Part shown: piece by piece, positions 1 through 29,624 of the stretch
Layout of the letters: every line of letters begins with the position of its first letter
Position numbering within the stretch: the stretch's first letter is position 1
From: an uncultured bacterium
GTDB lineage: Bacteria; CAYUVA01
Direction: 5' to 3'
Assembly (NCBI GenBank): GCA_964448115.1
Contig: CAYUVA010000012.1
Span: 7,769 to 71,768, forward strand
DNA length: 64,000 nucleotides
Program-made: the position numbers and the translations under genes
The notes under the pieces: generated by a model
Database searches by the model: none
The model's input: only the letters and a program-made list of their open reading frames with translations
What the model was told of the DNA's origin: nothing

Positions 1-227
1 GGCAGCAACCTTGCTATTGATTAGCTCTTTGCCATATCCAAAAGCGCAAAGGAGCGTAAATAAATTCTCCTTATCATCAAAGAAGTAGAGGCGAGCTTTC
101 AGGCTAGGGACATTGGCAGCGAGGCATTCGAGGATAAGAAGCGTAATTTCCTTGATTTCCTTTACCGCATAGCGGTTTATCCCCTTGAGAAGCTCGATGA
201 ACCGTTCAGGTGATGTTGCCTTGTCTG
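1..227 (-). CDS. Hypothetical protein, N-terminal part only; the gene runs past the window start
   Basis: Minus-strand ATG (reverse complement of CAT at 225-227) opens a frame with no stop before the window edge (MTDKATSPERFIELLKGINRYAVKEIKEITLLILECLAAN...). It lies 34 nt downstream of, and on the same strand as, the HD-GYP gene. It is absent from the ORF track because it has no stop inside the window. Confidence 0.4.
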
Positions 228-261
228 TCATGGCATTAAACCTATTCCTCCAAGAGCGATA

Positions 262-1269
262 TTATACCTTAATTACCTTTTTTCGCACCAGTTCGAGAAA
301 TAGCTCAACAAGTGTAGGATCTAATTGGGTCCCCTTAACTCCCGACATTATCATAATGGCTTCCTGGTGATCGAATCCCTTGCGATAGGCTCGGTCGCTG
401 GTCAATGCATCATAGGTATCAGCAACAGCAATTATCCTCCCGCCGAGTGGAATATCTCCCCCGGAGAGCTTCATCGGGTACCCCTTGCCATCATATCGCT
501 CATGATGCGAAAGAATGGACTGCAGGATCTCCTTTTGGTTGATTATCGGCTTAAGGATGGTAACTGCTCTCTGTGGGTGCTGCTTCATGGCTTCGAATTC
601 CTCCTCGCTCAGGCGACCGTTTTTATTCAATATCGACTCGCTTACGCCGAATTTACCGATATCATGCAAAAATCCAGCGATCCTAAGATTTTCTAGCTTT
701 TTATTCTCGAATCCGAGCGCCTTTCCCATTGCCTCTGCAATGCCGGCGACCCGTTCGCTGTGTCCTCTAAGGTATGGATCGCGCGCCTCGATTATGTTTG
801 CATAGCTCAAGATAGAGCCGAGGAACATCTCTCGTATCTGCTGAGTCTTTTCCAATACCTTAAGTTCGAGATTCTCTCTGTATTCACGCAGCTCGATCTG
901 CAAGCTGCGTTTTTCAAGCACCCTTTTTACGGTTGTGGAAAGCTCGGTGAGGTTCAAAGGCTTGATCAGGTAATGCTCCGCGCCTCCCACAAGGCACTCG
1001 ATGGCTGTTTTTGTGTCAGACAAAGAGGTGATCATCACCACCGCCAGCTCCTCGTACTTTGGTTTTACCCTTTTGAGCAGCCATTTCCCATCATAATTGG
1101 GCATACGAATATCGAGCAGGACAAGTGCGACCGGCTCTTGCTCGATGATCTCCAAGCCTTCTTTGCCGTTGGAGGCTTGCAGCGTGGAGTATCCCTCGTC
1201 TTCGAGGAATTCGGCGATCGATTCCCTATAATCGATATCGTCCTCAACAAGTAATATGTATTCATCCAT
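262..1269 (-). CDS. Response regulator with N-terminal receiver domain and C-terminal HD-GYP domain (putative c-di-GMP phosphodiesterase, RpfG-like)
   Basis: Receiver motifs LLVEDD ... LVLLDIRMP ... YLIKP. HD-GYP motifs FLHDIGK and HHERYDGKGYP. AAGGAG RBS about 9 nt upstream of the ATG at 1269. Confidence 0.9.
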   Translation of the reverse strand: MDEYILLVEDDIDYRESIAEFLEDEGYSTLQASNGKEGLEIIEQEPVALVLLDIRMPNYDGKWLLKRVKPKYEELAVVMITSLSDTKTAIECLVGGAEHYLIKPLNLTELSTTVKRVLEKRSLQIELREYRENLELKVLEKTQQIREMFLGSILSYANIIEARDPYLRGHSERVAGIAEAMGKALGFENKKLENLRIAGFLHDIGKFGVSESILNKNGRLSEEEFEAMKQHPQRAVTILKPIINQKEILQSILSHHERYDGKGYPMKLSGGDIPLGGRIIAVADTYDALTSDRAYRKGFDHQEAIMIMSGVKGTQLDPTLVELFLELVRKKVIKV

Positions 1270-1377
1270 TATGCTCAGGCTCCTTGTTTTTAAGGATAAT
1301 CGGTCGAGTCAGGGGTGGATGTTAAGGGGCAAAGCCTACACTCACAACCAGCAGTGTACTAAACTCTCCATGTTTCC

Positions 1378-1407
1378 TTGACAATGCCATGGCTTATAGC
1401 CTATATA
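1378..1407 (+). promoter_or_regulatory. Candidate sigma-70 promoter for the downstream + strand signalling operon
   Basis: TTGACA (1378-1383), 18-nt spacer, TATATA (1402-1407), in the 227-bp divergent intergenic region upstream of the ORF starting at 1497. Confidence 0.3.
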
Positions 1408-1496
1408 TTATTGTAATAAAAAAATTTATCAAAGGGCTTATAACAAGGCAATCGCAACTAAATGCTTCTTGCTTAACTTAAAAAAGGAGGCAGCTT

Positions 1497-1793
1497 ATGA
1501 ATCAACACCAGAGGGCTATTATCCAGCAGCAGATGGATATCTTAAAAAAAAATATCCGAGGGGATGCAACCAGATATACCCTGCACGAATTCAAGAAGAA
1601 CCTGGTTCAATGGAAACAAACAACGCTAGATTGCCTGGAGGAAGCCTTCAAGGATGACAAGCAAGTCATCCACCAGTTTAACAAGCATTGGGAGAACATT
1701 GAGAGGATCAACTGGGATTCAGCACATAAGAACGAGATCCTGAAAAGTGTGATCTATAGAATGCATGAGTTTTTGACACAGCTAATTAGATAA
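1497..1793 (+). CDS. Small helical protein of 98 aa, first gene of the signalling operon; possibly a hemerythrin-like (HHE) domain
   Basis: Strong RBS AAGGAGG 6 nt upstream of the ATG. Several spaced His/Glu pairs (LHEF, HQFNKHWENIE, AHKNE, MHEF) resemble HHE cation-binding motifs. No other recognisable domain. Confidence 0.55.
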   Translation: MNQHQRAIIQQQMDILKKNIRGDATRYTLHEFKKNLVQWKQTTLDCLEEAFKDDKQVIHQFNKHWENIERINWDSAHKNEILKSVIYRMHEFLTQLIR

Positions 1794-1812
1794 GATCGGG
1801 CAGGTGAATTAC

Positions 1813-2973
1813 ATGTCTGAGGTTAGGAAAGCTCGTATCCTGATCGTTGATGATGATCATCATGTGCGAGAGATGCTTGAGGAGTTCTTTATCCTGGAGG
1901 GATTCGAGGTAGATACGGCGGTAGATGGCGAGGATGGCTATCAAAGGGCGACCGAGAAGGATTACGACCTGGTGATCTCAGACATCAAGATGCCGCGCAT
2001 GGATGGCATCAAGCTGCTGGAGAAGCTGAAAAGCTATGATGAAGAGCTGATCGTCATCCTGCTCACCGCTTACGCCGAGATGGACTCGGCTATCCAGGCT
2101 ATCAGGCTTGGCGCCAATGACTTCATCTTAAAGCCAATCGTCAGCTTCGATGCGCTATTGATCAGCATCGATAGGCTGCTGGAGAATAAAAGACTGAGAC
2201 AGGAAAATATCAGGCTGCTGGAGGATCTGAAGATAAAAAACGAGAAGTTACAAAAACAGTATCAAGAGCTTGAGCGCCTCCAGGAGCTGAAAAGAGACCT
2301 TACCGATATGATAGTCCACGATCTGAAAAGCCCCCTGGCAGCCCTGGTGGCGAGTATAGAGATGGACTTGAGAAACCTGGCTAAGGGGAAGCTGGATCGT
2401 TTGCCTGATCGCATGAAGAAGGAGCTGGAGATCTGCCGCAGCATGACCGACCAGATAACAAACCTTCTCGATATCGACAAGATGGAGGAAGGTAAGCTAA
2501 CCCCTAAGCTAGAAGACCATGATCTGATCGATATCATCCAGGAGAAGATCGACCTTCATAAAAATCAGGCACAGTCGCATGGGCTATATCTTAAGATGGA
2601 GGCGAGTTACGATTCTGTAAAGCTGCCGGTAGATAGATCGCTTATCGCCAGGGTGGTAGATAACCTGGTATTCAACGCCTTGAAACATACCACTAGCGGG
2701 GGAGTTACCGTAAAATTGAGCAGCGATAATGATAAAGTTAAAGTCAGCGTCATCGACACTGGTCCGGGAATAGAGAAGGAGCTTCACGAGCTTATCTTCC
2801 AAAAGTATGTTCAGGGTGAGAAAAGAGATGCGATCATGTCCCACAATACCGGGCTTGGATTGACCTTCTGCAAGATGGCAATAGAGGCACACGGCGGCAA
2901 GATCTGGGTGGAGAGTGAACTCGGCAAGGGAAGCAGCTTCATCTTTACTCTGCCGACAAAATCTGAAAATTAA
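1813..2973 (+). CDS. Hybrid histidine kinase with receiver domain first (REC-HisKA-HATPase_c)
   Basis: REC: ILIVDDDHHVREM ... LVISDIKMPRMDG ... FILKP. H-box: IVHDLKSPLAAL. ATPase G-boxes: GLGLTFCKMAIEAHGGKIWVESELGKGSSF. ATG at 1813 has AGGTGA 5 nt upstream. The ORF track starts at a GTG at 1804, which is an alternative. Confidence 0.9.
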   Translation: MSEVRKARILIVDDDHHVREMLEEFFILEGFEVDTAVDGEDGYQRATEKDYDLVISDIKMPRMDGIKLLEKLKSYDEELIVILLTAYAEMDSAIQAIRLGANDFILKPIVSFDALLISIDRLLENKRLRQENIRLLEDLKIKNEKLQKQYQELERLQELKRDLTDMIVHDLKSPLAALVASIEMDLRNLAKGKLDRLPDRMKKELEICRSMTDQITNLLDIDKMEEGKLTPKLEDHDLIDIIQEKIDLHKNQAQSHGLYLKMEASYDSVKLPVDRSLIARVVDNLVFNALKHTTSGGVTVKLSSDNDKVKVSVIDTGPGIEKELHELIFQKYVQGEKRDAIMSHNTGLGLTFCKMAIEAHGGKIWVESELGKGSSFIFTLPTKSEN

Positions 2974-2982
2974 TACAACTCG

Positions 2983-4158
2983 ATGACTGGAAACACCGAA
3001 CTAAATAAGCAAATTAAGGATAAGCGTACAGCTCAGCCCAAGTTACTCATCGTCGATGATAACCGCAGTTTCCTGGAGACCTGCGTGGAATTCTTCAGCG
3101 AGGAGGGTTTTACGGTAGATCAGGCGGCAAGCGGTAATGAAGCACTTAGCTTGCTCGCTGAGAGCAATTATGATGTGATCCTTTCCGATATCGCCATGCC
3201 GGGACTTAGCGGTATCGATCTTTTAGAGCATATAAGAAATCGGGGCATAGATACCCCCGTTATCCTGGTAACCGCTTATGGCTCCCTGGATACAGCAGTT
3301 AAGGCACTTAAACAAGGGGTATTCGACTTTATCCTCAAACCGGTCAACATGGAAGACCTGCTTATGCGGGTACAAAAGAGCCTGGAGTTCTCTTATCTTA
3401 TGCAAGAGAAGTTCGAGCTTTACGAGCAACTGCGCGAAAAGGAGAAGCAGGAACGAGCCAAGGATGAGTTCATATCCATAATCTCCCATGAGCTGAAGAC
3501 GCCGGTTACGATAATTCGTAACTATATAGAGGTTATCGAGGCGTTGCTTCAAAACGATAAGGATGATGAGAAGATCAAAATATTGAGTATAATCAAAGAT
3601 CAACTGGAGAGGCTTCGTCGTGATATTCACAACCTGCTCTTCTTTTCACAGGTCAGTTCCAGCGAGTATGAACCAGCGGTCAGCGAGGTCGAGCTATCCA
3701 AGCTGGTCGGCTCAGTGGTCGAAAACTACCGCAACCTGGCAAATGAAAAAAAACTACTATTAGCTGTTGAGATCGCTGAAGGGATATGGATGAAAGGGGA
3801 TGGACGGCTGCTGGAGATGATGATCTCCAACCTGGTAGATAATGCGATAAAATTCAGCCATGAGGGTACGATTCAAGTATCGCTAACCAGGCTGGGTGAT
3901 TCCATCAGGTTGATCGTCTCCGACCAGGGCATCGGCATCCCCTCCGAGTCGATCAGCAAGATCTTCGATCGCTTCAGCCAGCTCGATTCTCACATGACGC
4001 GAAGGCACACTGGGGCAGGGCTGGGGCTGGCAATAGTCAAAAACGCGGTGAACACACATAGGGGGAAGATAAAAGTGGATAGTAAGCCCGGCAAGGGAAC
4101 CACCTTTACGGTTACCCTACCTGTAGATAGGAGTAAGATAAATGGAATCAAAAGATAA
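2983..4158 (+). CDS. Hybrid histidine kinase with receiver domain first (REC-HisKA-HATPase_c), paralogue of the upstream gene
   Basis: REC: LLIVDDNRSF ... VILSDIAMPGLSG ... FILKP. H-box: ISHELKTPVTII. G-boxes: GAGLGLAIVKNAVNTHRGKIKVDSKPGKGTTF. Confidence 0.9.
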   Translation: MTGNTELNKQIKDKRTAQPKLLIVDDNRSFLETCVEFFSEEGFTVDQAASGNEALSLLAESNYDVILSDIAMPGLSGIDLLEHIRNRGIDTPVILVTAYGSLDTAVKALKQGVFDFILKPVNMEDLLMRVQKSLEFSYLMQEKFELYEQLREKEKQERAKDEFISIISHELKTPVTIIRNYIEVIEALLQNDKDDEKIKILSIIKDQLERLRRDIHNLLFFSQVSSSEYEPAVSEVELSKLVGSVVENYRNLANEKKLLLAVEIAEGIWMKGDGRLLEMMISNLVDNAIKFSHEGTIQVSLTRLGDSIRLIVSDQGIGIPSESISKIFDRFSQLDSHMTRRHTGAGLGLAIVKNAVNTHRGKIKVDSKPGKGTTFTVTLPVDRSKINGIKR

Positions 4159-4519
4159 ACGACAGATACTGATCCTGGATGATGAGTATCATCTGGCGCA
4201 ATCCACTGCCATAGTACTCAAGATGAAGGGATATAAGTGCGATATAGCCCTGGATGTAGATGAGGGTCTTGAGTTGATAAAGTCCAAGGAATACCAGCTT
4301 ATCCTGCTCGATATAATGCTGCCCGGTAAGGATGGCTGGCGCTTCCTGGAGCAGCTACGCAAGGATAATAAGAACAAGCATATAGCGGTGATCGCATTTA
4401 CGGCTAAGGAATATCTGAACATCGAGAAGCTGGTGAAAGAGAAGGGCTTGCAAGGTTTCTTGGCAAAGCCCTTTGAGCCGTCCGAACTTCTAGCTATCAT
4501 TCGCAAGGTATTAAAGTAG
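4142..4519 (+). CDS. Single-domain CheY-like response regulator receiver
   Basis: ILILDDEY ... LILLDIMLPGKDG ... FLAKPF. Overlaps the previous gene by 17 nt. GGAG RBS upstream. Confidence 0.9.
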   Translation: MESKDKRQILILDDEYHLAQSTAIVLKMKGYKCDIALDVDEGLELIKSKEYQLILLDIMLPGKDGWRFLEQLRKDNKNKHIAVIAFTAKEYLNIEKLVKEKGLQGFLAKPFEPSELLAIIRKVLK

Positions 4520-4534
4520 TGGAGTTTTTGAACC

Positions 4535-5560
4535 ATGAGCGATCAAAAGAGCATAAGCGACAGGATACTTGAAGTCTGCCAGATTCCATTGCTGGTGGTA
4601 GATGCTGACTGCAAGATGGTTTATCTGAATCCGGCTATGGATCAACTGGTCTCTCAGTGCGGGTTTGAGGATGACCTCGATGGCTTTATAGAGCGCATGA
4701 AAAAGCAGTTATCGATCTATATCAACGGTATTCTCGATGGACTCTTTGCGAAGTATAATAATAAGATCGACCTGTGTGATAGAGAACTCTTCGTGTCCCT
4801 TTTTTGCTTGGATGAGGATAAAAAGCAGGTTTTGCTCCAGGTAGAAGATCGAACAGGGATCAAGCAACAGGAGCGCTTTCGTTTCACCCAGATAGCTGAG
4901 CTGGTTCATAGACTTCGCTCGCCGCTGACCGCCATAAATATATCGATGAATATGCTCCAGGAGAGCAGGGGGGATCTATCCGAGGATGAGCAGAATACGC
5001 TAATAAGAAACGCCAGACAAGAAACCAAGCGTTTCATCGTACTATTGAACAACCTGCGAGATCTTTTATTGATCGAATCCGGAATCATGTCCAGCCAGAT
5101 AAATCTCGACGAATGCAATCTTAGGGATATCATCGACGATGCAATAGGAAGCCTGGAGGCTATAATAAAAGAAAAAGGTATCGAGCTATCCTACTCGCCG
5201 GAGCTTTTCGATCACCTGGTGATCACCGATCGCATGAGGCTCACCCAGGTGGTGGCTAACATACTCTCCAATGCGATGCAATTCTCGCCGAGAGGCTCTA
5301 CCGTGGGCATAAGCTGCTATGATGAGGAGGATCACCTGCGCATTACCGTCTCCGATCGCGGGATCGGCATCCCACAAAAGGAGCTAGCCTTCATATTCGA
5401 CAAGTTCTACCGGGGCAGTTCACCCGAGGTGCGCATGGTGCCTGGGGACGGCATCGGACTATATATCAGCAAACATCTGCTTCAGATATTAGGCGGGGAG
5501 ATAGAGGTGCTCTCTACATGGGGCAAGGGCACCCAGGTAGAGATTAAACTCTGGACATAA
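4535..5560 (+). CDS. Sensor histidine kinase (N-terminal PAS-like region, HisKA, HATPase_c), cytoplasmic
   Basis: H-box: LVHRLRSPLTAINISMNML. N/G-boxes: ILSNAMQFSP ... GDGIGLYISKHLLQILGGEIEVLSTWGKGTQV. No predicted TM segment. Confidence 0.88.
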   Translation: MSDQKSISDRILEVCQIPLLVVDADCKMVYLNPAMDQLVSQCGFEDDLDGFIERMKKQLSIYINGILDGLFAKYNNKIDLCDRELFVSLFCLDEDKKQVLLQVEDRTGIKQQERFRFTQIAELVHRLRSPLTAINISMNMLQESRGDLSEDEQNTLIRNARQETKRFIVLLNNLRDLLLIESGIMSSQINLDECNLRDIIDDAIGSLEAIIKEKGIELSYSPELFDHLVITDRMRLTQVVANILSNAMQFSPRGSTVGISCYDEEDHLRITVSDRGIGIPQKELAFIFDKFYRGSSPEVRMVPGDGIGLYISKHLLQILGGEIEVLSTWGKGTQVEIKLWT

Positions 5561-5573
5561 GAAGCATACCATT

Positions 5574-6965
5574 ATGAGTTTCAATATACTTATAGTTGAG
5601 CCAAAGACCAAGCACCGCGATTTACTACGCAATATGCTATTGCAATGGGGATATATGGTAAAGACGGCAAGCTCAGCCGAGGAGGCATTGGAGGAGATTC
5701 GCAGACAACAATTCTCCTTGGTTTTGGTAGATTATGATCAGCCCCAGGAGCGAGCCGCCATCACAAGTTCGCTGGACAAAAACCTTGCCGATTACTCGCT
5801 TTTTTATATTTCCGAGAAGGCAAAAGCCCCTGACATTGTGGATGGGTTAAAAAGCGGTGCGGATAACTTCTTCGTTCTCCCCCTGGACATAGACTCCTTT
5901 AAAAAGGCAGTCAGCGATATTTACCACAAACATAAAAAGAGCAAACATAGGAAACTGACCAAGCAGCGTCAACGGGAGGCTTATTCCATAGATAGCCTGA
6001 TCGGCTCCAGTAAGCCGATGATGGAGCTAAAAACTAAGCTGCGCAGGATATGCCAAAGCAAGGCTTCAACCGTCCTTATCACCGGCGATAGCGGGGTTGG
6101 CAAGGGGCTGGTCGCTCGCATCATCCACTACAACAGCGACCGAGCTGATCAACCATTCGTGGAGCTTAACTGCAGCGCTATACCCGAATCTTTGCTGGAG
6201 ATGGAACTATTCGGCTATGTGGAGGGCGCATTTACCGACGCGAAGAAGGACAAGAAGGGGCTTTTGGAGATCGCGGATCAAGGGAGTTTGTTCCTTGATG
6301 AGATCAGCGATATGCCGATGCTTCTCCAGGTCAAGCTGCTCAAAGCGATCGAGGAAAAGACCTTCCGTAAGCTCGGAGCCACCTCTGATGAGCTTGTTGA
6401 TGTGCGCATTATAACCGCAACCAATCGAGATCTAGGTGAACAGATCCGGTTGGGGAACTTTCGAGAGGATCTTTTCTATCGATTGAATGTTATTGGGCTT
6501 CACATTCCGCCCTTGAGGGAACGCCCCGAGGATATCGAGGAGTTGAGCTATCATTTTATTGAGAAATTCAATACGGAGTTTGGCCGCAATGTCAGTAGCC
6601 TTCATCCTCAAACGCTCAAGATCTTCAAAGAATATCACTGGAACGGTAATGTACGAGAGCTTTCCAACCTTATAGAAAGGATCATGCTACTGGAGGAGAT
6701 AGAGACTATAACCCCGGATGTACTTCCCAAGGAGATGCTAAAGGCAACAGGATACACCGCATCAGCTTTTGATAGCGGCAAAAAGCACTTTTTCGAGCTG
6801 CCCAAGGATGGAATTTCGCTTGAGGAGGTGGAGAAAGATCTAATTGCACAGGCGGTAAAGCGTGCCGGTGGCAATATCGCCGAGGCATGCCGGCTGCTAG
6901 GGCTTAGTCGTGAGACTTTGCGCTATCGGATAAAAAAATACAACATTGAGGTGCAGCGCAGGTAG
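5574..6965 (+). CDS. Sigma-54-dependent transcriptional activator (NtrC-family enhancer-binding protein) with an atypical N-terminal receiver
   Basis: AAA+ sigma-54 interaction domain: Walker A TGDSGVGKG, GAFTDA (GAFTGA variant), LFLDEISDM, FREDLFYRLNV. C-terminal Fis-type HTH: AGGNIAEACRLLGLSRETLRYRIKKY. The receiver keeps the LVLVD Asp but lacks the acidic DD pair and the KP motif. Confidence 0.92.
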   Translation: MSFNILIVEPKTKHRDLLRNMLLQWGYMVKTASSAEEALEEIRRQQFSLVLVDYDQPQERAAITSSLDKNLADYSLFYISEKAKAPDIVDGLKSGADNFFVLPLDIDSFKKAVSDIYHKHKKSKHRKLTKQRQREAYSIDSLIGSSKPMMELKTKLRRICQSKASTVLITGDSGVGKGLVARIIHYNSDRADQPFVELNCSAIPESLLEMELFGYVEGAFTDAKKDKKGLLEIADQGSLFLDEISDMPMLLQVKLLKAIEEKTFRKLGATSDELVDVRIITATNRDLGEQIRLGNFREDLFYRLNVIGLHIPPLRERPEDIEELSYHFIEKFNTEFGRNVSSLHPQTLKIFKEYHWNGNVRELSNLIERIMLLEEIETITPDVLPKEMLKATGYTASAFDSGKKHFFELPKDGISLEEVEKDLIAQAVKRAGGNIAEACRLLGLSRETLRYRIKKYNIEVQRR

Positions 6966-6970
6966 GTTAC

Positions 6971-9900
6971 TTGCTCAATAACCGACCTGGCTTGCACTTA
7001 TTCTATTATAGCTTGACCGAGAAGCAAAAAAAATCCGAATCCCTCCAGGAGTTGGTCAGCTCATTCGTGCCCGAGCACATATTACCCTACCTATCTGAGC
7101 AGAGGCTGCTCACCTTCAAGGGTGAACGAAGGCGGCTTAGCATCCTTTTCGCTGATATCAGCGGTTTCACCAGCCTCTCCGAGCAGCTTGATCCTGAACA
7201 GGTCATCGGCCTGGTCAACCAATTCTTCCTGCGGGTAATCGAGATCTCACGAAGCAAGCTCGGTGTGGTCGATAAATTCTTAGGCGATGCTGCCCTTATA
7301 ATTTTTGGCGCCAGTAGATATACCGGATTAGAGTCGGTACTGGCAATCAAGACCGCATTGGAGCTTGTAAGGATGGTGGAAAGCGAAAAATTCACCATCT
7401 TGAACAGCTCTGAACCGATAAAAATCGGAATCAAGGTAGGAATTAACACCGGCAGAGTAGTTGCCGGTATCGTGGGAGGTAAACACAAGCGGGAATATAC
7501 AGTCATCGGAGACGAGGTAAACCTGGCTTCTCGCATAGAAGATCTGGCTCAAACCGGTGAGATACTTGTAAGCCACCAGACCATGCTGGAAGCAAAAGAT
7601 CACTTCGAGTTCGAGGACCTGGGGTACAAAAAGCTCAAGGGTAAATCAGAGCCTTTGCGCATATACAAGGTGCTTGGCAGCAAGAAAATAGGGAAAGTCA
7701 TCGAAAAAAAGCGCCAGCTTTTCAGGTTCGTGGATAGAGAGAAGGAGATCGCTTCCTTCGAGGAACTTCTAAGATCCGATAATAAAAGCATCCGATCGGT
7801 TGCGGTAACCGGCGATACCGGCATCGGTAAGACCGAATTGATCGGCAAGCTGAGAGACAAGTTGCAACAGGTCAACTACCAGATATTTGAGGCTGGTGGA
7901 CAAGGCTGGTGGGGGGAGACTGTGCTTGCGCCTGTAAGGGCTGTCTTCAGGCAACTATTGAAGACGCAAGAGGTGCCCCTGGATAGGCTCAAGGAATACC
8001 TGGATGAAGCATTAGCTGCCATAGCGGATAAAACATGGCATAAGCAGGCAGACCGCGAGGTATCAAAGGAGTTAATAAATGATCCCAACATCGAGGATCT
8101 ATTATTCTTCTTGTGCAGCCATACCGATAACTATTCGCTGATCGAGCACCTGGGTTCTAGCCGACTGAGGGAGAATATACTCGCTTTATTATCTCTTGTC
8201 GCAAGCGCTAAAAGCCATGAAGCTCCTATATCATTTATATTCGATGATCTGGAGGGTTACGATTCATTGAGTGTGGAGGTTATATCCGATCTTGTGGCAA
8301 GTCGGGCAATTGAAGGCGCCATCATTATACTCGGCTATGAGAGATCATATTTCAAGGCTGATTTGCTGAATAATAGATGCGACCTGGTGCTGGTGCTAAA
8401 GCCTTTGGAGCCGGGGATGCTTCGCGCCGCTGCCTCGATGTTTGTCAAAAAGCATCCCCAAGTAAGCCCGATCATGAACAGGATCATCCAGGCATCTGGT
8501 GGCATACCCCTGGTATTCAAGGAGATGCTCAATGCGCTAGCGCAACAGCCCGCTGAATCACTGGAAAAGGCATCAACCTCGCTACTGGGAGATCTGCAAG
8601 GCTCCCAGGCGCTGGAACAGGTAGCGCTGAGCCGTTTCGATGCCCTATCGGTTCTACAAAAAGACATCATCCGCTTTGCCTCTATCTTGGATGCTCCCTT
8701 CTCGATAGATCTAATTGCACGATTTTTCCCGTTCGACAAGGAGCTTGTGCATGATGAGATCAAACTGCTTGCCGATCGAGGTTTCTTTACAACAAGTCAA
8801 AGTCCAAGCGGGCAGGTTGTGTATAAACTTGCTCGACCATTCTTCGCTGATGCGATCTATCAAACCATCCTAAAGGATCAGAGAAGGGAAATGCATCAAA
8901 AGATAGCCGATACCCTTGAATCGTTGAGCTACCATGATCCTAATCGAAGCAATAGAAGCCTGGCTCTACATTTTCACCATGCAGGCATCGACCACAAGGC
9001 ATATTACTATCTGCTGGATCTGGCAGAGTCCTTAAGCAGCGTCGATGCACACCGAGAAGCTATCGAATACCTCGAATTGGCTGGCATGCACCTTCCAGGT
9101 TCACCATCAGATAAGGCTAATGAACGGGCGCGCTTGAACCTGAAGCTGGGGAGTTCTTACGAGGCTTTGGGAATGTGGGACAAGGCACAAAATATATACC
9201 TGGAGACGGTAGCGATATTCCGAGATGCCAAAGACATAAACGAGATAACCGCCAAGGCTTACGCCAGCCTGGGGAGCATCCTGATAAACAAGGGCGAATG
9301 GAAGGCTGCCCAAAGTTACCTGGATAAGGCAAATTCATATTATATCGAAAAGGAAGACCTGGAGGGCATGTTCAATACCTACAACCAAAGGGGTATCCTA
9401 GAGATACAACAGGGGAATCTGGAGGCGGGATTCGGCTTCTTCAACAAAGCGCTTGAATGCGGCCAAAGACTGAAGGATCCCCGGCTACAGTCATCAGCCT
9501 TGGTCAATCTCGGCATAGCCTATAATATTTCCGGCAAGCGCAAGGATGCGATTGCTGCATATCTGAAGTCGCTGCCGCTGTTCGAGTTTATGGGCGATTT
9601 CAATGCCATAGCCCGCACCTACCATAATCTTGGCATGACCTACCGGGACCTGAAAAGATTCAAAGATGCAGAGAACTATTACAGAAAGGCTCTGGAGATC
9701 CTGCGCCGTTGTATGGATTATCATCTGTCAGGAATGACCTACATGAACCTCTCTGATGCATTAGGCGAGCAGGGAGACACTCGTGCTGCACTAAGCTTCA
9801 ATGAGCGCGCCGAGCAATTTCTTATGCGCGTCGGCGATGAGCTTGCCCTGGCGGACTGTAGGAGGATAAAGGGCAAGATACTCCACAAGGCAGGAAAGAA

Positions 9901-10126
9901 TAGTTTAAGCCTCCAGGCATACCAGGAGGCAGCCGAAATGGCTCAAAAAGGGGGAGCCTCATTGACCCTGGCAGAGGTGTATTTTGAGATGGGTCAGGTG
10001 TTCCTAATGGAAAAAAGGCGAGATAAGGCGATTGGGCACTTGAATAAAGCCAGGGAGATCTTCCTTCAACTAGGGAATTCAGAGATGGTGGCTGCAATCG
10101 ATAAGCTCTTAAAGCCACGAGAATGA
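6971..10126 (+). CDS. Class III nucleotidyl cyclase - STAND/AAA NTPase - TPR multidomain signalling protein
   Basis: Cyclase domain: LSILFADISGFTSL ... DKFLGDAA ... TVIGDEVNLASRIE (metal Asp, transition-state Asn and Arg present). P-loop: VAVTGDTGIGKTEL. TPR-like repeats fill the C-terminal third or so. TTG at 6971 is the first start-type codon in frame after the stop at 6949 and sits 5 nt after the upstream stop. There is no in-frame ATG before the cyclase domain. Confidence 0.88.
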   Translation: MLNNRPGLHLFYYSLTEKQKKSESLQELVSSFVPEHILPYLSEQRLLTFKGERRRLSILFADISGFTSLSEQLDPEQVIGLVNQFFLRVIEISRSKLGVVDKFLGDAALIIFGASRYTGLESVLAIKTALELVRMVESEKFTILNSSEPIKIGIKVGINTGRVVAGIVGGKHKREYTVIGDEVNLASRIEDLAQTGEILVSHQTMLEAKDHFEFEDLGYKKLKGKSEPLRIYKVLGSKKIGKVIEKKRQLFRFVDREKEIASFEELLRSDNKSIRSVAVTGDTGIGKTELIGKLRDKLQQVNYQIFEAGGQGWWGETVLAPVRAVFRQLLKTQEVPLDRLKEYLDEALAAIADKTWHKQADREVSKELINDPNIEDLLFFLCSHTDNYSLIEHLGSSRLRENILALLSLVASAKSHEAPISFIFDDLEGYDSLSVEVISDLVASRAIEGAIIILGYERSYFKADLLNNRCDLVLVLKPLEPGMLRAAASMFVKKHPQVSPIMNRIIQASGGIPLVFKEMLNALAQQPAESLEKASTSLLGDLQGSQALEQVALSRFDALSVLQKDIIRFASILDAPFSIDLIARFFPFDKELVHDEIKLLADRGFFTTSQSPSGQVVYKLARPFFADAIYQTILKDQRREMHQKIADTLESLSYHDPNRSNRSLALHFHHAGIDHKAYYYLLDLAESLSSVDAHREAIEYLELAGMHLPGSPSDKANERARLNLKLGSSYEALGMWDKAQNIYLETVAIFRDAKDINEITAKAYASLGSILINKGEWKAAQSYLDKANSYYIEKEDLEGMFNTYNQRGILEIQQGNLEAGFGFFNKALECGQRLKDPRLQSSALVNLGIAYNISGKRKDAIAAYLKSLPLFEFMGDFNAIARTYHNLGMTYRDLKRFKDAENYYRKALEILRRCMDYHLSGMTYMNLSDALGEQGDTRAALSFNERAEQFLMRVGDELALADCRRIKGKILHKAGKNSLSLQAYQEAAEMAQKGGASLTLAEVYFEMGQVFLMEKRRDKAIGHLNKAREIFLQLGNSEMVAAIDKLLKPRE

Positions 10127-10136
10127 ACCCGCTGGA

Positions 10137-10841
10137 TTATTCCTCCTTCAGGTGTTTTTTTATGATCCCCAGAAATTGTTGATTATCCTTTAGCTTCTCG
10201 AAGTCTATGTCATCCCAGGCATACTGCGCCATCCGTTCATCCTTGCAAACTGCCTTCTGAACCCTAGAGATAGCATCCTCCAGCCTGTTGTAACGAGCAT
10301 GGATGGAGGCGATATAGTAGTGAGCCTCTGCCTCGTTCTCACGGTTGGCAATAGCCTTCTCGAATGCCTGTAAAGCCTCATCGAAATTGTTGGAGGCGTA
10401 GTAATAAACCGCACTGCTAAAGTCGCTCATATCGGCATCGACAATATTTCCCTTAATATTCTTCTTGTTATCGAAGTATCTTTTCAGATAGTTGGAGGCT
10501 ACGTGTCGTAGTGAGATATCTGCTGATTCCTGACCAAGGATGGTGTTAAGCAACCTCTCAGCCTCTTTCTTCTTCCTATTCTGCAACGATATTAGTGCCT
10601 TATCCAATAATTTTTCAAGATCTACCGATGTTGGTACAGATTGTGCTTTAGGTTTCGGCTTAGGGGGTGCTTTTTTTCTTTTAACTTGACTGGTAGTTGC
10701 CTTTTGTTTTTTTACCTTTGAGCGCTTATTTCTTACCGCCGATTTTGTTACGCCATATCTTTCAGCAAGCTGTGTATCGGTCAATCCATCGGGGTTATAT
10801 ACGATGTCATAGACCTCATCATCATTCCATTTTTTAGGCAT
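10137..10841 (-). CDS. Hypothetical protein with N-terminal HTH-like region, Lys-rich linker and C-terminal TPR-like repeats
   Basis: QLAERYGVTKSAVRNKR (HTH-like), then KRKKAPPKPKPKAQ, then TPR-like YYYASNNFDEALQAFEKAI. GGGAGGAG RBS upstream of the ATG at 10841. Confidence 0.7.
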   Translation of the reverse strand: MPKKWNDDEVYDIVYNPDGLTDTQLAERYGVTKSAVRNKRSKVKKQKATTSQVKRKKAPPKPKPKAQSVPTSVDLEKLLDKALISLQNRKKKEAERLLNTILGQESADISLRHVASNYLKRYFDNKKNIKGNIVDADMSDFSSAVYYYASNNFDEALQAFEKAIANRENEAEAHYYIASIHARYNRLEDAISRVQKAVCKDERMAQYAWDDIDFEKLKDNQQFLGIIKKHLKEE

Positions 10842-11091
10842 GAATGGCTTCTCCTCCCTACATTGAAGGTTTAAGAAAACGGTTTTTAGTGATAAAGTAC
10901 CTCATAAAAATAGACCAGGGCGGGCAATCCGCCAAAACATTGACCATGTAATCAAGTCAATTGATAGCAGACATTTTCATCCAAGTCAAGTAAGCTGATT
11001 TCTCACCCACAAACTATGCATAATGATTAACCATATTCTTTCAAAATCCTCGCAATGATAATCGATGTAAACAGCGCTGAGGAATTGATTT

Positions 11092-11285
11092 TTTACAATT
11101 GTGTCGATAGGAGTTGATATACTTTCACCCTCAACAGAGGGCTTCAGCCCTCTGCTTCTATCAGCGGACTAAAGCCACGCTGTTGATGGGGCTTAATCAC
11201 TGGATACCCCCTTCGTGGGGACAGGCTTTTAGAGGAGATATTCCTACTAACTAAAGTCCCCTCTATCAAGAGGGGATTTAGGGGT
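11092..11285 (+). ncRNA. Candidate structured small RNA (promoter-like element, nested hairpins, terminator-like hairpin); strand and identity uncertain
   Basis: TTTACA (11092-11097), 20-nt spacer, TATACT (11118-11123). Hairpins: 11135-11154 (8-bp stem), 11162-11182 (5-bp stem), 11207-11220, and a strong 8-bp stem at 11257-11276 followed by TTTAGGGGTGTGTCTTTCTT. Alternative long-range pairing of 11128-11137 with 11180-11191. No ORF of 60 aa or more. Confidence 0.3.
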
Positions 11286-11366
11286 GTGTCTTTCTTCCCT
11301 TAATACCTCTTTTGAGGTCTTACTTAGACTTTAAGGGCATTTGTTCGCTCTATGGGCTGAGCTAGT

Positions 11367-12599
11367 TTATATGTTCTTGAGGTCGCGGCTACTTATGGAG
11401 AACGAGAACATAAGCTCCTCATCGAAGTTGGTGGCAAGCGCGAAGCTCATGGTTCCAGCACTGAATCCCATGGTGATATAAGAAGGCGTATCGCTTGTGG
11501 CTAGGTTTGCCAGGTACCCGCAGCGGAGGGCATAGAATCCCTCGGAGAAGGTCTTCTGCGCGCCTAAGCCAAAGAAGTGATAGCGCTGGTAGGTGTTTAT
11601 GGTCTTTTCCTTGGTGATATCGTAATCTAATGCTATGGTCCATGTCTTTGCAGGCATAACAGCAGCCCCAATCCTCGCTTGTGGTTTCAGCTCGGTTTTC
11701 TTGGTTATGAATGTCCCTTCATCGACCTTGATCTTGTATTTGAACTCAGGTCCATTGATGTTACGAGCCACGATTCCGACCGATAGCAGCTCCCGATACT
11801 CGTAATAGCATCCGAGATCAAGGGCATAACTACTTGTGGTAAGGCTTTCGCCCCTGGTTACGCTATCTTCCTCCACTTCGCTATCCTGCTCGGCGTTGTC
11901 CTGGATATTGTAGGTATAATGCGTCATTGAGCCGGTGATAAAGCGCAGCGTTCCCCCGAACTTGATATCGCCCTCGATGTAATCCCTCATCTCTTTTGTC
12001 AGAATGGATCTCCCATAAGAGACTCCCAGGTCTAAGCCGGCTCGCACTGCCAGGAACATCTTGCTTTGGTTGTAGTAAATCGAGTTGGGATCTACCAGGT
12101 AGTCAGAGGGATTGATGCGCTCCATATCGATTATGAAGTAATCATCCAGCACGGCGCCAAGCCCGATACTTAAAGCAAAGTTATTATATGAGACGGCGAG
12201 ATTCTTTCGGTACTTTACACTCAGATTAGTTCCCCGCTCGTTTATCTTTTGTAGTTTCCTGAGCAAGTTCGCATAATCATCGAGCGTTGGGTCATAGTAC
12301 TGTTCATCGTAAAGATTGGTATCGGAGAAGACATCCATTATATCATCGAACTTACCTAGAAAATCGTTGCCGTTGACCAGCTTGAAGATGGTCGGTGTAT
12401 AGGTAATCGCATTGCCAGACGGGATCAGCGCTGGATTGAAGTGTGCTGATGCAGCATCCAGCTTGATGCAGGCGAATGTACCCCCCATCCCCAGAGAGCG
12501 TGCATCGAACAGATCCGGCTCCAAAGCCATGGATTGGACTGAGAAAATACAAAGAAATAGGGGTATCGCAATTATCATCAAGCAACGAGCCGCTGCCAT
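11367..12599 (-). CDS. Putative outer-membrane beta-barrel protein with N-terminal signal peptide
   Basis: Signal peptide MAAARCLMIIAIPLFLCIFSVQSMA. Mature protein has alternating amphipathic Gly/aromatic-rich segments and is rich in Tyr, Gly and Asn. AAAGGAGG RBS upstream. Family assignment not possible by eye. Confidence 0.7.
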   Translation of the reverse strand: MAAARCLMIIAIPLFLCIFSVQSMALEPDLFDARSLGMGGTFACIKLDAASAHFNPALIPSGNAITYTPTIFKLVNGNDFLGKFDDIMDVFSDTNLYDEQYYDPTLDDYANLLRKLQKINERGTNLSVKYRKNLAVSYNNFALSIGLGAVLDDYFIIDMERINPSDYLVDPNSIYYNQSKMFLAVRAGLDLGVSYGRSILTKEMRDYIEGDIKFGGTLRFITGSMTHYTYNIQDNAEQDSEVEEDSVTRGESLTTSSYALDLGCYYEYRELLSVGIVARNINGPEFKYKIKVDEGTFITKKTELKPQARIGAAVMPAKTWTIALDYDITKEKTINTYQRYHFFGLGAQKTFSEGFYALRCGYLANLATSDTPSYITMGFSAGTMSFALATNFDEELMFSFSISSRDLKNI

Positions 12600-12745
12600 G
12601 TTAGCGACCTCCTTTTATGATTGAGTCTTCATCAGCGATCATACGCCATCTCGAAATTTAAAGCTATCATAATAAAGTCCTTGTTTCGGGATTAAAAGAT
12701 GCCTTGCATTGCATGCGGTTTTCTGCTTAATAATTAAGCTGCATT

Positions 12746-13930
12746 ATGACTGCGAGGGATGCAAACATAAATAAATACCTTTTAGCCATACACCTTGCCG
12801 ATGGTGTAGGCTCCGTTTTGTCTGATCGTCTGCTTACCGAGTTTCCTGATCCCAAGGAGATCTTCGATGCACCGATAAAAAGGCTGACCGCGATCAAAGG
12901 GATGAGCGAACGCATAGCCAGGAATATCAAAAATACCCTTGATTCGGAAAGGCTGAAGCAGGAATTGAAGTCTATTTCGGAGCATAAAGTTACCTTGATA
13001 ACCAGGCTCGATCCCGCTTATCCTGCAAACTTGAATAAAATAAAGGATCCACCGCTGGTATTGTATGTTCAAGGCAGATTAGCACCTGAAGATATTAACT
13101 CGGTTGCCATAGTCGGCACCAGAGAATGCAGTTACTACGGGATGAAGATGGCAGATTACTTTGCCAGGGAATTGGCAGCCAGGGGTATAACCGTGATCAG
13201 TGGCTTGGCGCGTGGAATCGACTCTTATGCCCACGCCGGTGCATTGAAGGAAGCCAAGGGAAGGACCATAGCTGTAGTCGCATCCGGTCTCGATATCGTT
13301 TATCCATCAGAGAACTACCAGCTAAAGAATATGATCGTAAACAAGGGAGCTGTGATCTCCGAGCTGCCTATGGGGACAAGACCGGATCGATCCAATTTTC
13401 CATCAAGAAATCGCCTGATCAGTGGTCTATCGCTCGGCGTTCTGATAGTGGAAGCGCCTGCGAAAAGCGGAGCACTGATCACCGCTGACATAGCCTTTGT
13501 TCAAGGGCGACTGGTCTTTGCGGTACCGGGCAGGGCAGACGATCAAGGAACAAAGGGCAATCTCAGGATACTCAAGAATGGTGCAAAGGTGGTCGCTGAT
13601 GTGAAGGATATCATAGACGAACTCGAATCGCTGCTCACCTTTCGACCAAAGAAGGACATTACACCTCAAAACGCAGTCATAGAAGGAGATTCGGCTGATC
13701 GGGTCAATAACGAGCTAGAAAAATCTACACCTAAAGGAACGCCACAGGGTCTATCTTCCGAAGAGGTAGCCGTATTCAACCTGCTGAGCGACTCACCGAG
13801 ATATATAGATGATCTGGCAAGCGAACTCGGCAAGCCGGTACACATTATCGGCTCCGTACTGCTTAAATTGGAGATCCTCGGATTAGCCATGCAATTGCCC
13901 GGCGGAATGTTCAAAAGAGCGGAAGAATAA
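12746..13930 (+). CDS. dprA: DNA processing protein A (DprA/Smf)
   Basis: Rossmann-like DprA core: VAIVGTRECSYYGMKMADYFARELAARGITVISGLARGIDSYAHAGAL ... SGALITADIAFVQGRLVFAVPG. The gene is adjacent to topA. Confidence 0.92.
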   Translation: MTARDANINKYLLAIHLADGVGSVLSDRLLTEFPDPKEIFDAPIKRLTAIKGMSERIARNIKNTLDSERLKQELKSISEHKVTLITRLDPAYPANLNKIKDPPLVLYVQGRLAPEDINSVAIVGTRECSYYGMKMADYFARELAARGITVISGLARGIDSYAHAGALKEAKGRTIAVVASGLDIVYPSENYQLKNMIVNKGAVISELPMGTRPDRSNFPSRNRLISGLSLGVLIVEAPAKSGALITADIAFVQGRLVFAVPGRADDQGTKGNLRILKNGAKVVADVKDIIDELESLLTFRPKKDITPQNAVIEGDSADRVNNELEKSTPKGTPQGLSSEEVAVFNLLSDSPRYIDDLASELGKPVHIIGSVLLKLEILGLAMQLPGGMFKRAEE

Positions 13931-13932
13931 AA

Positions 13933-16104: not shown

Positions 16105-16282
16105 GAGATCTCCTCAAGATATATAAGGTTGTGTCCCACCGCCGGGGCAAGGACTGGATGTCCGTTCGCCCGTGTATGTATAAGACAAGCTAATAATATT
16201 CGTGAAAGTGGCTCTAAAGAACCTTTTTTGCATTTTGTTGGCGAAAATATTAAAAAAACGCCAATGAAAAAGGAAAAAGCTA

Positions 16283-16702
16283 ATGCAGACTAATGATTTC
16301 AGCTTTAATGATGAGCAGAACTTCTCCGAGATAAATGTCGTGCCGCTGGTAGATATAATACTGGTCTTGTTGATAATCTTCATGATAGCAGCTCCCATGA
16401 TGAAGGCGGGCATCGAGGTCGATCTCCCCGAGGCATCACCGAGACAGTTCAATGTCGATATCGAGGAGCGATATGTCATAAGCATCAGCGCCCAGGGCGA
16501 TGTTTATCTTAATCAATCGAAGATACCAATCGATGAGCTAGAGCAGAAGATAAGGCAATTATACCATAATAAGCCCGATAAGGGAGTTTTCTTGCAGGCA
16601 GATAAGCGCGTGCCCTATGGCATAGTCGTAAAGGTTATGGATCATCTAAAGCGCGCTGGTATCGAGAATCTAGGGGTGATAACCGAATCGCCAGAGAGAT
16701 AG
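16283..16702 (+). CDS. exbD: ExbD/TolR-family biopolymer transport protein
   Basis: INVVPLVDIILVLLIIFMIAAPMM, a single TM helix, then a periplasmic domain. 139 aa. Confidence 0.85.
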   Translation: MQTNDFSFNDEQNFSEINVVPLVDIILVLLIIFMIAAPMMKAGIEVDLPEASPRQFNVDIEERYVISISAQGDVYLNQSKIPIDELEQKIRQLYHNKPDKGVFLQADKRVPYGIVVKVMDHLKRAGIENLGVITESPER

Positions 16703-16741
16703 TTTTCTCGGACCCTTCACCATCATATAATAAAGGGATGT

Positions 16742-28587: not shown

Positions 28588-28769
28588 GCTTAAAAAAATC
28601 GAAGGATAATGTATATCAATTCATGCTGGATCTTCAAATTTGGCGACTATTAATTCTGCATTATTTTGGCTTTTTTGCATGGAAATATTCCCTCTCCCAG
28701 TGGAGTCTGTCTCAACTTGGTTTTATTAGTTAGCTTTGCTAGCATTAGTAGTTGTTTGTGGCATAATAA

Positions 28770-29624
28770 ATGCATCAAGAGAACCCAATGAACATTGCAG
28801 CAGATCATATCGAGTTTCGCCGTTTCATACTTCAGTGCGAGCGCATCATCGCCCAGATCGATGACTATGCTGATCGCCTGGAAGCGCTGGTTGAGCCATT
28901 CAACAGACTTCTATTGGAGCGTCGCCTGGTCGAGGATGCTGTTATGCGCCTTTTCAAGGATGAGGATTATCTAAGAAGCCAGTCGAGTTGTCTGCATAAG
29001 AATGAGCTTAAGTTATATCGCGATCCACACGATGAGTTCTCGGTTCGACTATTTCTATGGCAGGCTGGAGTGATGTCCGAGATACATGATCACGGCAGTT
29101 GGGGGCTGGTCGGATGCGCTCTAAATCAACTCAAGATTCTTCATTATCGAAGGCTCGATGATGGTTCTAAACCTGGTTTCGCCGAGTTGGAACCGAGCAA
29201 ACAAGTTTTTCTGGAGCCTGGACAGTGCGAGAAGGTGTTTCCCTTCAACCATGGCATCCACCAGGTCGGAGCTGATGTGATCAAGCCGGCTATATCGATC
29301 AGCCTTTATCTCAAGCCACTGCGTAAGGGATATATCTACGCTTTTAACCGGTTGCTCAACAAGTGTTGGAAGGAGTATCCGACTATTGTTGAAAAAAAGT
29401 ACCTCGCAACCTTGCTTTTCGAGCACTTCGAGAGCAGCAGCAGGTATAATGCGCTGTGGGCAGCGAGCGATGATAGAACACCACTGGTGAGACTGGAGGC
29501 GATGAAATTACTTTTAAAAGTCGCGCCGGAGAGGAGGCAGGATATCATCGAGAAAGGTTTGCACGATCCTGCACAGGAGGTTCGTAAGGGGCTAAAGGAA
29601 TATCTGGAGGGGATAGGCGACTAG
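28770..29624 (+). CDS. Hypothetical protein with cupin-like (cysteine-dioxygenase-type) N-terminal half and HEAT-like repeats at the C-terminus
   Basis: IHDHGSWGLVGC ... HGIHQVGAD are candidate metal-binding His motifs. C-terminal ALWAASDDRTPLVRLEAMKLLLKVAPERRQDIIEKGLHDPAQEVRK is HEAT/PBS-lyase-like. First gene of an eight-gene + strand operon. Confidence 0.6.
   Translation: MHQENPMNIAADHIEFRRFILQCERIIAQIDDYADRLEALVEPFNRLLLERRLVEDAVMRLFKDEDYLRSQSSCLHKNELKLYRDPHDEFSVRLFLWQAGVMSEIHDHGSWGLVGCALNQLKILHYRRLDDGSKPGFAELEPSKQVFLEPGQCEKVFPFNHGIHQVGADVIKPAISISLYLKPLRKGYIYAFNRLLNKCWKEYPTIVEKKYLATLLFEHFESSSRYNALWAASDDRTPLVRLEAMKLLLKVAPERRQDIIEKGLHDPAQEVRKGLKEYLEGIGD

Follow-up and report, generated by a model that had tools for sequence, protein, structure and literature searches.

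A row of soluble signalling genes in an uncultured bacterium: a probable HD-GYP two-component pair beside a probable multi-kinase operon with a sigma-54 activator and a cyclase-STAND-TPR protein

Nine signalling genes stand in a row at the left end of a 64,000-nucleotide (nt) stretch of contig CAYUVA010000012.1 from an uncultured bacterium (assembly GCA_964448115.1), the whole of which is called the window here. An original prediction had described positions 262-10126 as a nine-gene locus joining two second-messenger enzymes, a cyclase and an HD-GYP hydrolase of cyclic di-GMP (c-di-GMP), to a multistep phosphorelay. The list of open reading frames (ORFs) holds eight genes between these positions, one on the minus and seven on the plus strand, and the ninth signalling gene lies outside, to the left of position 262. 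On balance we favour a different reading, namely two adjacent, separate cytoplasmic signalling units, a two-component pair on the minus strand and a multi-kinase network on the plus strand, and not a His-Asp-His-Asp relay. The genes and features on which this reading is built are given here, with domains as found by Pfam unless described as "like" and lengths in amino acids (aa) or base pairs (bp).

1-231, minus strand: opening 77 codons of a gene for a soluble PAS-HisKA-HATPase kinase (515 aa or more) that continues beyond the left edge of the window
262-1269, minus strand: REC-HD-GYP response regulator, 335 aa (Response_reg 90.5 bits; HD_5 143.8 bits, cut-off 27.2; also HD)
1270-1496: divergent intergenic region, 227 bp, the presumed promoter site for both units
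1497-1793, plus strand: orphan protein of 98 aa, a predicted up-down four-helix bundle; first gene of the operon
1804-2973, plus strand: Rec-controlled histidine kinase 1, 389 aa (386 from the ATG at 1813), with REC, coiled-coil linker, HisKA and HATPase_c
2983-4158, plus strand: Rec-controlled histidine kinase 2, 391 aa, with REC, linker, HisKA and HATPase_c
4142-4519, plus strand: CheY-like single-domain receiver, 125 aa (Response_reg 81.5 bits)
4535-5560, plus strand: soluble PhoR-like histidine kinase, 341 aa, with a PAS-like N-terminus of about 110 aa, HisKA and HATPase_c
5574-6965, plus strand: NtrC-family sigma-54 activator, 463 aa, REC-Sigma54_activat-AAA_lid-HTH_8
6971-10126, plus strand: class III (IIIb-type) cyclase-STAND/MalT-like ATPase-TPR protein, 1051 aa, TTG start; last gene of the operon

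The HD-GYP gene diverges from the plus-strand genes, as had been predicted, and the latter are tightly packed. Their successive junctions measure 10, 9, -17, 15, 13 and 5 nt, the negative value being the predicted 17-nt overlap, here between the end of the kinase 2 gene and the start of the CheY-like gene, and the first gap becoming 19 nt if kinase 1 begins at the ATG at 1813. The gap range given earlier, 5-14 nt, is right in substance and wrong in its maximum (the true range is 5-15 nt). Nine signalling genes in a row with plus-strand gaps of no more than 15 nt are clearly a non-random arrangement, and because of the tight packing the seven plus-strand genes would probably form one transcript. 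The HD-GYP gene, on the opposite strand, stands outside this transcript, and with that the idea of cyclase, c-di-GMP and sigma-54 functions in one transcription unit falls away. Within the divergent region weak sigma-70-like matches were found at 1384-1411 (plus), 1432-1405 (minus) and 1325-1296 (minus), and a TTGACA-18-TATATA arrangement was spotted by eye at 1378-1407; the same 227 bp hold no sigma-54 motif at two or fewer mismatches and nothing convincing in the way of repeats or operator-like sites. Consensus scans for promoters and terminators did no better than on shuffled sequence and speak neither for nor against a single transcript. Across the window there were no Rfam families or tRNAs, and the scan for sigma-54 sites returned none better than two mismatches, at a count equal to that in shuffled sequence. 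A convergent gene follows the cyclase gene (10137-10841, minus strand), encoding a 234-aa protein with a very basic N-terminus and a C-terminal TPR "end-of-group" domain. The two stop codons lie 10 nt apart with no terminator between them, and this gene marks the end of the operon.

None of the eight proteins contains a 19-residue window with a Kyte-Doolittle hydropathy above 1.6, our criterion for a transmembrane segment, in agreement with the earlier view that the locus has no transmembrane sensor. Pfam likewise bears out seven of the eight domain assignments of the original prediction, among them the two receiver-first kinases, the CheY-like receiver, the sensor kinase, the sigma-54 activator and the 1051-aa cyclase-STAND-TPR protein (Guanylate_cyc-AAA_16-TPR). 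The one that did not survive is the hemerythrin-like (HHE) label of the 98-aa protein, discussed below.

On the minus strand, the translation of the HD-GYP regulator contains the signature motifs LHDIGK and HHERYDGKGYP. Its receiver, aligned like all receivers here to E. coli CheY, has E12, D13, D57, T87 and K109; a Glu at position 12 also occurs in 29 of the 118 nearest homologues of the sigma-54 activator. Judged by its motifs and its model match, the regulator is a predicted HD-GYP cyclic dinucleotide phosphodiesterase. The best solved relatives, aligned across the domain, are V-cGAP3 (5z7c), which is specific for cyclic GMP-AMP (cGAMP), and then PmGH (4mcw), a c-di-GMP enzyme, and the substrate would be c-di-GMP or possibly 3'3'-cGAMP.

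The gene for the left-hand kinase begins 30 nt downstream of the regulator gene and on the same strand. Its continuation is found on the Logan contig L001, which is 100% identical to window positions 1-5518 and reaches 1315 nt further left; on that contig (2-1546, minus strand) Pfam finds PAS_9, HisKA and HATPase_c, and a maximum hydropathy of 1.33 means that no transmembrane segment is predicted. The first ~180 residues are without a Pfam match. A regulator and a kinase encoded together on one strand are the standard layout of cognate partners, and the left-hand kinase is the probable cognate partner of the HD-GYP regulator. With this layout the HD-GYP enzyme most simply belongs to a two-component unit of its own, and the proposed joining of cyclase and c-di-GMP enzyme is not supported; divergent adjacency and comparative hints link the regulator only weakly to the operon. 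The pair resembles the RpfG-type REC-HD-GYP regulators in having a receiver, an HD-GYP domain with all signature motifs and a gene beside that of a histidine kinase. RpfC, the partner of RpfG, is a membrane hybrid kinase, whereas the partner kinase here is soluble and has a PAS domain.

All three plus-strand kinases have an H-box and an ATP-binding HATPase_c domain. Kinases 1 and 2, with the H-boxes HDLKSPL and SHELKTPV, are 32% identical end to end, as old paralogues. Their receivers are N-terminal, at residues 12-117 in the first and 22-130 in the second, ahead of HisKA and HATPase_c, and the REC-HisKA linker, read from the sequence of both kinases, is about 45 residues long. D12, D13, D57, T87 and K109 are all present in these two receivers and in the CheY-like protein. 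With that of the HD-GYP regulator counted in, four of the five receivers have canonical residues. The PhoR-like kinase aligns over its full length (residues 4-339) to PhoR (E 1e-47) and PnpS (E 2.5e-43), both below the model cut-offs, and Pfam gives no PAS match on its N-terminus.

Relays of the His-Asp-His-Asp kind depend on an Hpt- or Spo0B-like step and, as a rule, on a receiver C-terminal to the kinase core (PMC12471899). Pfam and NCBIfam find no Hpt or Spo0B-like domain in any of the eight proteins, and there is no hybrid kinase with a C-terminal receiver, as both Rec-kinases carry theirs at the N-terminus. The multistep phosphorelay is not supported on these two counts, and because of them the plus-strand operon would be a kinase cascade or network instead. 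The order Rec-linker-DHp-CA, with no other sensor domain, defines the Rec-controlled histidine kinases (PMC13269768), and on domain order, intact Asp pocket and H-box kinases 1 and 2 are predicted members of this LvrB type. In the Lvr system of Leptospira (LvrA to LvrB to LvrC), LvrA phosphorylates the N-terminal receiver of LvrB and so releases its catalytic domains, and the phosphate then passes to a downstream receiver (PMC13269768). Our locus shares with Lvr the Rec-helical linker-DHp-CA order, the intact phospho-Asp site and H-box, and the presence beside the Rec-kinases of genes for an additional stand-alone kinase and a downstream receiver. It differs in having two tandem Rec-kinases where Lvr has one, and in lacking a receiver-anti-sigma protein like LvrC, the neighbours here being a sigma-54 activator and a cyclase. 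The PDB sequence matches at E<=1e-20 included no solved LvrB chain, and the kinship to LvrB is thus one of architecture only. A comparable cascade is Che3 of Rhodospirillum centenum, in which CheA3 phosphorylates the CheS3 receiver and CheS3 alone phosphorylates CheY3 (PMC3868531). The logic proposed for our locus, from PAS-kinase to Rec-kinase to CheY-like receiver, is the same, whereas CheA, CheW, MCP and methylation genes are absent here and the kinases are of the HisKA and not the CheA type.

The sigma-54 activator gave Pfam scores of 216.5 bits for Sigma54_activat, 60.2 for HTH_8 and only 43.6 for Response_reg; among NCBIfam models AtoC fits best, with a score (360 bits) that stays under the cut-off of 714. 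The loop reads GAFTDA, a common natural variant found in 23 of the 121 sequences scanned. With an AAA+ domain, a GAFTGA-type loop and a Fis-type helix-turn-helix (HTH), it is a predicted sigma-54 enhancer-binding protein. The receiver is another matter: Asp57 is kept, while Pro stands at the position of Asp13 and Leu at that of Lys109, two residues kept in 114 and 117 of the 118 nearest homologues, against which the two substitutions are unique. The set of residues expected of a phosphorylatable receiver (Asp13, Asp57, Thr/Ser87, Lys109) is incomplete, and this domain is probably a pseudo-receiver that would not be phosphorylated in the canonical way. Because Asp13 and Lys109 are gone, the activator is a doubtful terminal phospho-acceptor, or end point, for a relay. 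As in the NtrB/NtrC and AtoS/AtoC pairs, the gene for a soluble PAS kinase lies directly upstream of a REC-AAA+-HTH_8 activator; in contrast to those pairs, the receiver lacks the two residues. In this respect it may resemble FleQ or FlbD, activators with receiver-like domains that are not phosphorylated. The c-di-GMP-binding motifs of FleQ were not obvious in the activator, no formal search having been made. Its nearest homologues are 43% identical and lie in pilus, cytochrome and unrelated loci; at this level they are paralogue-level matches, and synteny anchored on the activator was discarded.

The cyclase gene begins 5 nt after the activator gene, and the NCBI gene call gives the same 1051 aa. 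Pfam scores were 100.2 bits for Guanylate_cyc, 48.2 for AAA_16 (cut-off 32.6), 133 for TPR_12 and 48.3 for TPR_MalT (cut-off 45). In a 12-sequence alignment of the family the metal-binding D62 and D106 are invariant, as are K102, T177, N184 and R188 and, in the ATPase domain, G281, G284, G286 and K287 of Walker A and D431 of Walker B. The best solved relative of the cyclase domain is the adenylate cyclase CyaB of P. aeruginosa (3r5g, E 2e-33), in which the same residues align. The N-terminal part thus has the residues of a class III adenylate cyclase and the remainder those of a MalT-like STAND nucleoside triphosphatase, with a P-loop, Walker A and B and then a TPR array, and both activities are predicted on this basis. 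Because CyaB is the nearest solved relative, the product is most likely cyclic AMP (cAMP). Its family ("class 3 adenylate cyclase/TPR repeat protein") is very large and lacks a functional characterisation; the cyclase-AAA_16-TPR order is the same, and there are 942 relatives at E<=1e-20 in many phyla, the best of them 28% identical. What sets the protein apart is that its gene stands at the end of a two-component operon, a position seldom seen among the relatives. The mycobacterial Rv0386, Rv1358 and Rv2488c are cyclase-ATPase-HTH cousins; the present protein differs from these in having no C-terminal LuxR helix-turn-helix.

The 98-aa protein at the head of the operon is preceded by a strong Shine-Dalgarno sequence (AAGGAGG, 7 nt upstream), and its sequence is identical in an independent assembly (L001). 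It matched nothing in Pfam or NCBIfam even at E<=10 and nothing in PADLOC; a marginal PHROGs match (E 0.005) is to a family of unknown function. A word-indexed search of 5.8 billion clusters returned only the protein itself, an exhaustive HMMER search of 1.84 billion representatives added only two long proteins in which many stretches matched, likely through low complexity, and a PDB sequence search gave nothing useful. The single-sequence AlphaFold2 model (predicted local distance difference test, pLDDT, 88.5) has four helices, and its fold matches are generic, with designed bundles, sensor domains and CCM3 all ranking above CheA P1. Of six histidines, none has a Glu at +4 (no HxxxE); His30 sits at a helix start in the context HEFKK, not HxxKG. 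A hemerythrin identity was rejected given the lack of a model match, the missing HxxxE motif and the purely generic bundle folds, and a role as Hpt protein is likewise not supported by these features.

Conservation was assessed in 81 loci of the cyclase family, made up of 80 loci from species-representative genomes and one metagenomic locus, L002. A two-component or HD-GYP gene lies within 3 kb of the cyclase gene in 18 of the 81; such genes number 0.62 per 10 kb inside this 3-kb distance and 0.32 per 10 kb beyond it, and in seven loci an HD-GYP gene lies within 10 kb. These figures suggest a mild, unproven association of the cyclase family with kinase and HD-GYP genes, the events being clustered and without a genome-matched background. 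A histidine kinase gene was seen within about 135 nt of the cyclase-STAND-TPR gene in L002, L009, L011, L037, L063 and L074. As to whether gene order is conserved, the answer is no for the cyclase family at large, and yes only in the sense that the same parts recur, rearranged, in one distant relative, L002. The nearest cyclase homologues come from candidate phyla, e.g. Poribacteria, WOR-3 and Stahlbacteria, and since the best of them is only 28% identical there is no close relative of the source organism in the databases.

L002 carries that nearest cyclase relative (P0006). Here a PAS-kinase, an activator and the cyclase are encoded on one strand with the cyclase last, and a lone receiver, four further kinases and a REC-HD-GYP regulator lie within 10 kb of the cyclase gene. 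Each of these parts best-matches its counterpart in the window, and the whole parts list fits within 16 kb; the gene order is not the same, and in two of the kinases GAF takes the place of REC as input. A sigma-54 promoter site with one mismatch, TGGCATCCCCTTTGCT, was seen in L002 at 9369-9384 (plus strand), 38 nt upstream of a gene for 166 aa (in the stretch 9423-9990) that follows directly on the activator gene, has a signal-peptide-like hydrophobic N-terminus and is itself followed by a terminator-like hairpin; this gene is the likely target of the L002 activator. At 14212-18073 (minus strand) of the same locus a pair formed by a FapA-domain gene and a PAS kinase gene, in that order, occurs twice, beside the lone receiver and two GAF kinases, and this repeated kinase-FapA arrangement is unusual. 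A third, looser version of the arrangement is present in Tepidibacillus sp. LV47 (L004; NZ_JBLWIF010000001.1, 1965-17095). There a cyclase-AAA_16-TPR gene at 9824-13330 lies beside a divergent operon for a GAF-PAS kinase, a PAS kinase, a REC-HD-GYP protein and another receiver protein; downstream of the cyclase gene come a NarL-type pair and, 3 kb away at 16382-17095, the gene for a Crp-family regulator that binds cyclic nucleotide monophosphates (cNMP).

The scheme that we infer from these parts, with its co-transcription, phosphorylation pairings, cAMP product, mode of cyclase activation and any cross-talk between the units, would run as follows. In the minus-strand unit, the soluble PAS kinase would phosphorylate the receiver of the REC-HD-GYP protein and thereby tune the hydrolysis of c-di-GMP, or possibly of 3'3'-cGAMP. 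In the seven-gene plus-strand unit, the PhoR-like soluble PAS kinase would be the likely primary sensor, and Rec-kinases 1 and 2 would be switched by an upstream kinase, through phosphorylation of their N-terminal receivers, into an active or inactive state. The CheY-like receiver could serve as end acceptor, phosphate sink or connector. The activator, having lost two residues needed for normal phospho-activation, is probably governed otherwise, e.g. by a partner protein, or may be constitutively poised. The product of the last gene would make cAMP; class IIIb cyclase domains must dimerise for activity, and ATP-dependent oligomerisation of the STAND-TPR part, triggered by a ligand or partner, would bring them together.

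Several points weigh against this account, which we hold to be moderately probable. In 56 of the 81 cyclase loci the flanking DNA examined has no two-component or HD-GYP gene, and only in L002 is an activator gene directly upstream of the cyclase gene. Even there a sigma-54-like site, a small gene and the hairpin part the two genes, and because of these the L002 trio is not one tight operon; moreover, the L002 activator is 37% identical to ours, below the 43% of homologues from unrelated contexts. At our own locus the intergenic parts offer no sigma-54 candidate for the activator, the 98-aa protein is without an assignable role, the activator receiver retains Asp57, Ser87 and Glu12 and could thus be phosphorylated non-canonically, and phosphotransfer partners are not predictable from sequence. 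In favour of the account, L002 repeats a similar parts list, which we regard as a comparative hint.

The same hint can be read in other ways. Accretion could have thrown the genes together, some of them co-transcribed, as an island of signalling genes without a common pathway, in which cyclase, activator, Rec-kinases and HD-GYP pair would each serve an unrelated circuit. The many cyclase loci with no two-component neighbour would then be expected, as would the pilus and cytochrome contexts of the closest activator homologues, a 98-aa protein without homologues, and nearest relatives that in no family exceed 43% identity. Set against this are the 5-15 nt gaps and the 17-nt overlap, which favour co-expression and often translational coupling, the fact that, up to 3 kb from the cyclase gene, two-component and HD-GYP genes are about twice as dense as further out, and the recurrence of the parts list in L002; we consider accretion unlikely. 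Rather unlikely too, and somewhat more so, is the opposite extreme, the integrated nine-gene multistep phosphorelay of the original prediction, which would co-ordinate cAMP, c-di-GMP and sigma-54 control and cast the 98-aa protein as the missing phosphotransfer or sensor part. It can draw on the divergent adjacency of the two units, on the parts found together within 16 kb in L002, on the looser version in Tepidibacillus, where a Crp-family regulator is added, and on the seven loci with an HD-GYP gene within 10 kb. However, no protein has an Hpt model match, the 98-aa protein not even at E<=10, the latter has generic fold matches that rank above CheA P1, and its His30 is not in an HxxKG context; the HD-GYP regulator has its own kinase, the activator receiver is degenerate, and two REC-HD-GYP co-occurrences in 81 loci are about the chance level, again with no genome-matched background. 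A bolder version, to which we give little chance, sees in the window, L002 and L004 a recurrent cross-phylum module of a cyclase-STAND-TPR protein, a REC-HD-GYP regulator and soluble PAS/GAF kinases. In it a Rec-kinase cascade would tie the making of cAMP to the hydrolysis of c-di-GMP or cGAMP; in this lineage the 98-aa protein would be a new phosphotransfer or sensor subunit, and the pseudo-receiver would be under the control of a partner or a nucleotide instead of phosphorylation.

An anti-phage role was also weighed. On that reading the cyclase-STAND-TPR protein would work as an immune sensor in the manner of Avs or Pycsar and answer contact with a phage protein by synthesising a cyclic nucleotide as alarm signal. 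Its layout of effector, STAND and TPR resembles that of the Avs proteins; PADLOC models of the PycC cyclase match the cyclase domain with up to 67.7 bits, and residues 50-787 match a PHROGs family without known function. The PADLOC matches are all at the domain level, to PycC and to TPR, that is to generic cyclase and TPR parts, with none to a STAND or Avs model. No Crp-like or cNMP-binding ORF, and so no cNMP-binding effector, adjoins the cyclase or occurs elsewhere in the window, and membership in Pycsar or Avs was rejected on these grounds. The specificity residues are Lys and Thr, as in the adenylate cyclase CyaB, and the gene closes a two-component operon, with dprA, topA and other housekeeping genes around it. 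A defence function is highly improbable on this evidence, and we return to the two separate units as the reading that we prefer.

The remainder of the window is ordinary chromosome, with dprA, topA, an ABC-F protein, radical SAM/B12 enzymes, glycosyltransferases, ligA, purL and purQ. At 43559-45052 (minus strand) there is a further soluble kinase, PAS-PAS-HisKA-HATPase, with no adjoining response regulator gene among the ORFs scanned. The gene at 11367-12599 (minus strand) encodes an outer-membrane beta-barrel-like protein with a TraF_2 match, a weak PorV/PorQ match and a hydrophobic N-terminus, a hint that the organism has an FCB-group-like or type IX secretion background. The region 20800-43555 is dense in radical SAM/B12-binding enzymes, SPASM domains and glycosyltransferases, and also holds a flavin adenine dinucleotide (FAD) oxidase with a CCG-domain partner and genes for type I phosphodiesterase/nucleotide pyrophosphatase (Phosphodiest); the region may serve to modify the cell envelope or lipids. 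Four ORFs had no Pfam match at E<=1e-5: 23378-25150 (minus strand, 590 aa), 26158-28587 (minus strand, 809 aa), 28770-29624 (plus strand, 284 aa) and 45083-47440 (minus strand, 785 aa). A sigma-54-like motif with two mismatches, TGGCATAATAAATGCA, lies at 28759-28774 (plus strand) and overlaps the annotated ATG of the ORF at 28770-29624; it is probably due to chance, because the window-wide count of such motifs equals that in shuffled sequence.

Every part of the locus belongs to a known family, and the combination is nearly unique to one uncultivated genome; we regard the finding as a sound annotation rather than a discovery. Of interest to specialists are the NtrC-type activator without Asp13 and Lys109 and the mild tendency of cyclase-STAND-TPR genes to adjoin kinase and HD-GYP genes. 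Tepidibacillus LV47 is a cultured organism in which the link between cyclase and HD-GYP could be tested. If the plus-strand genes do form one circuit, it would be a compact, wholly cytoplasmic kinase cascade in which two serial Rec-kinases feed sigma-54 transcription and cAMP synthesis. With a c-di-GMP phosphodiesterase pair next door, such a circuit would be useful for understanding kinase-to-kinase wiring and the cross-talk between nucleotide messengers.

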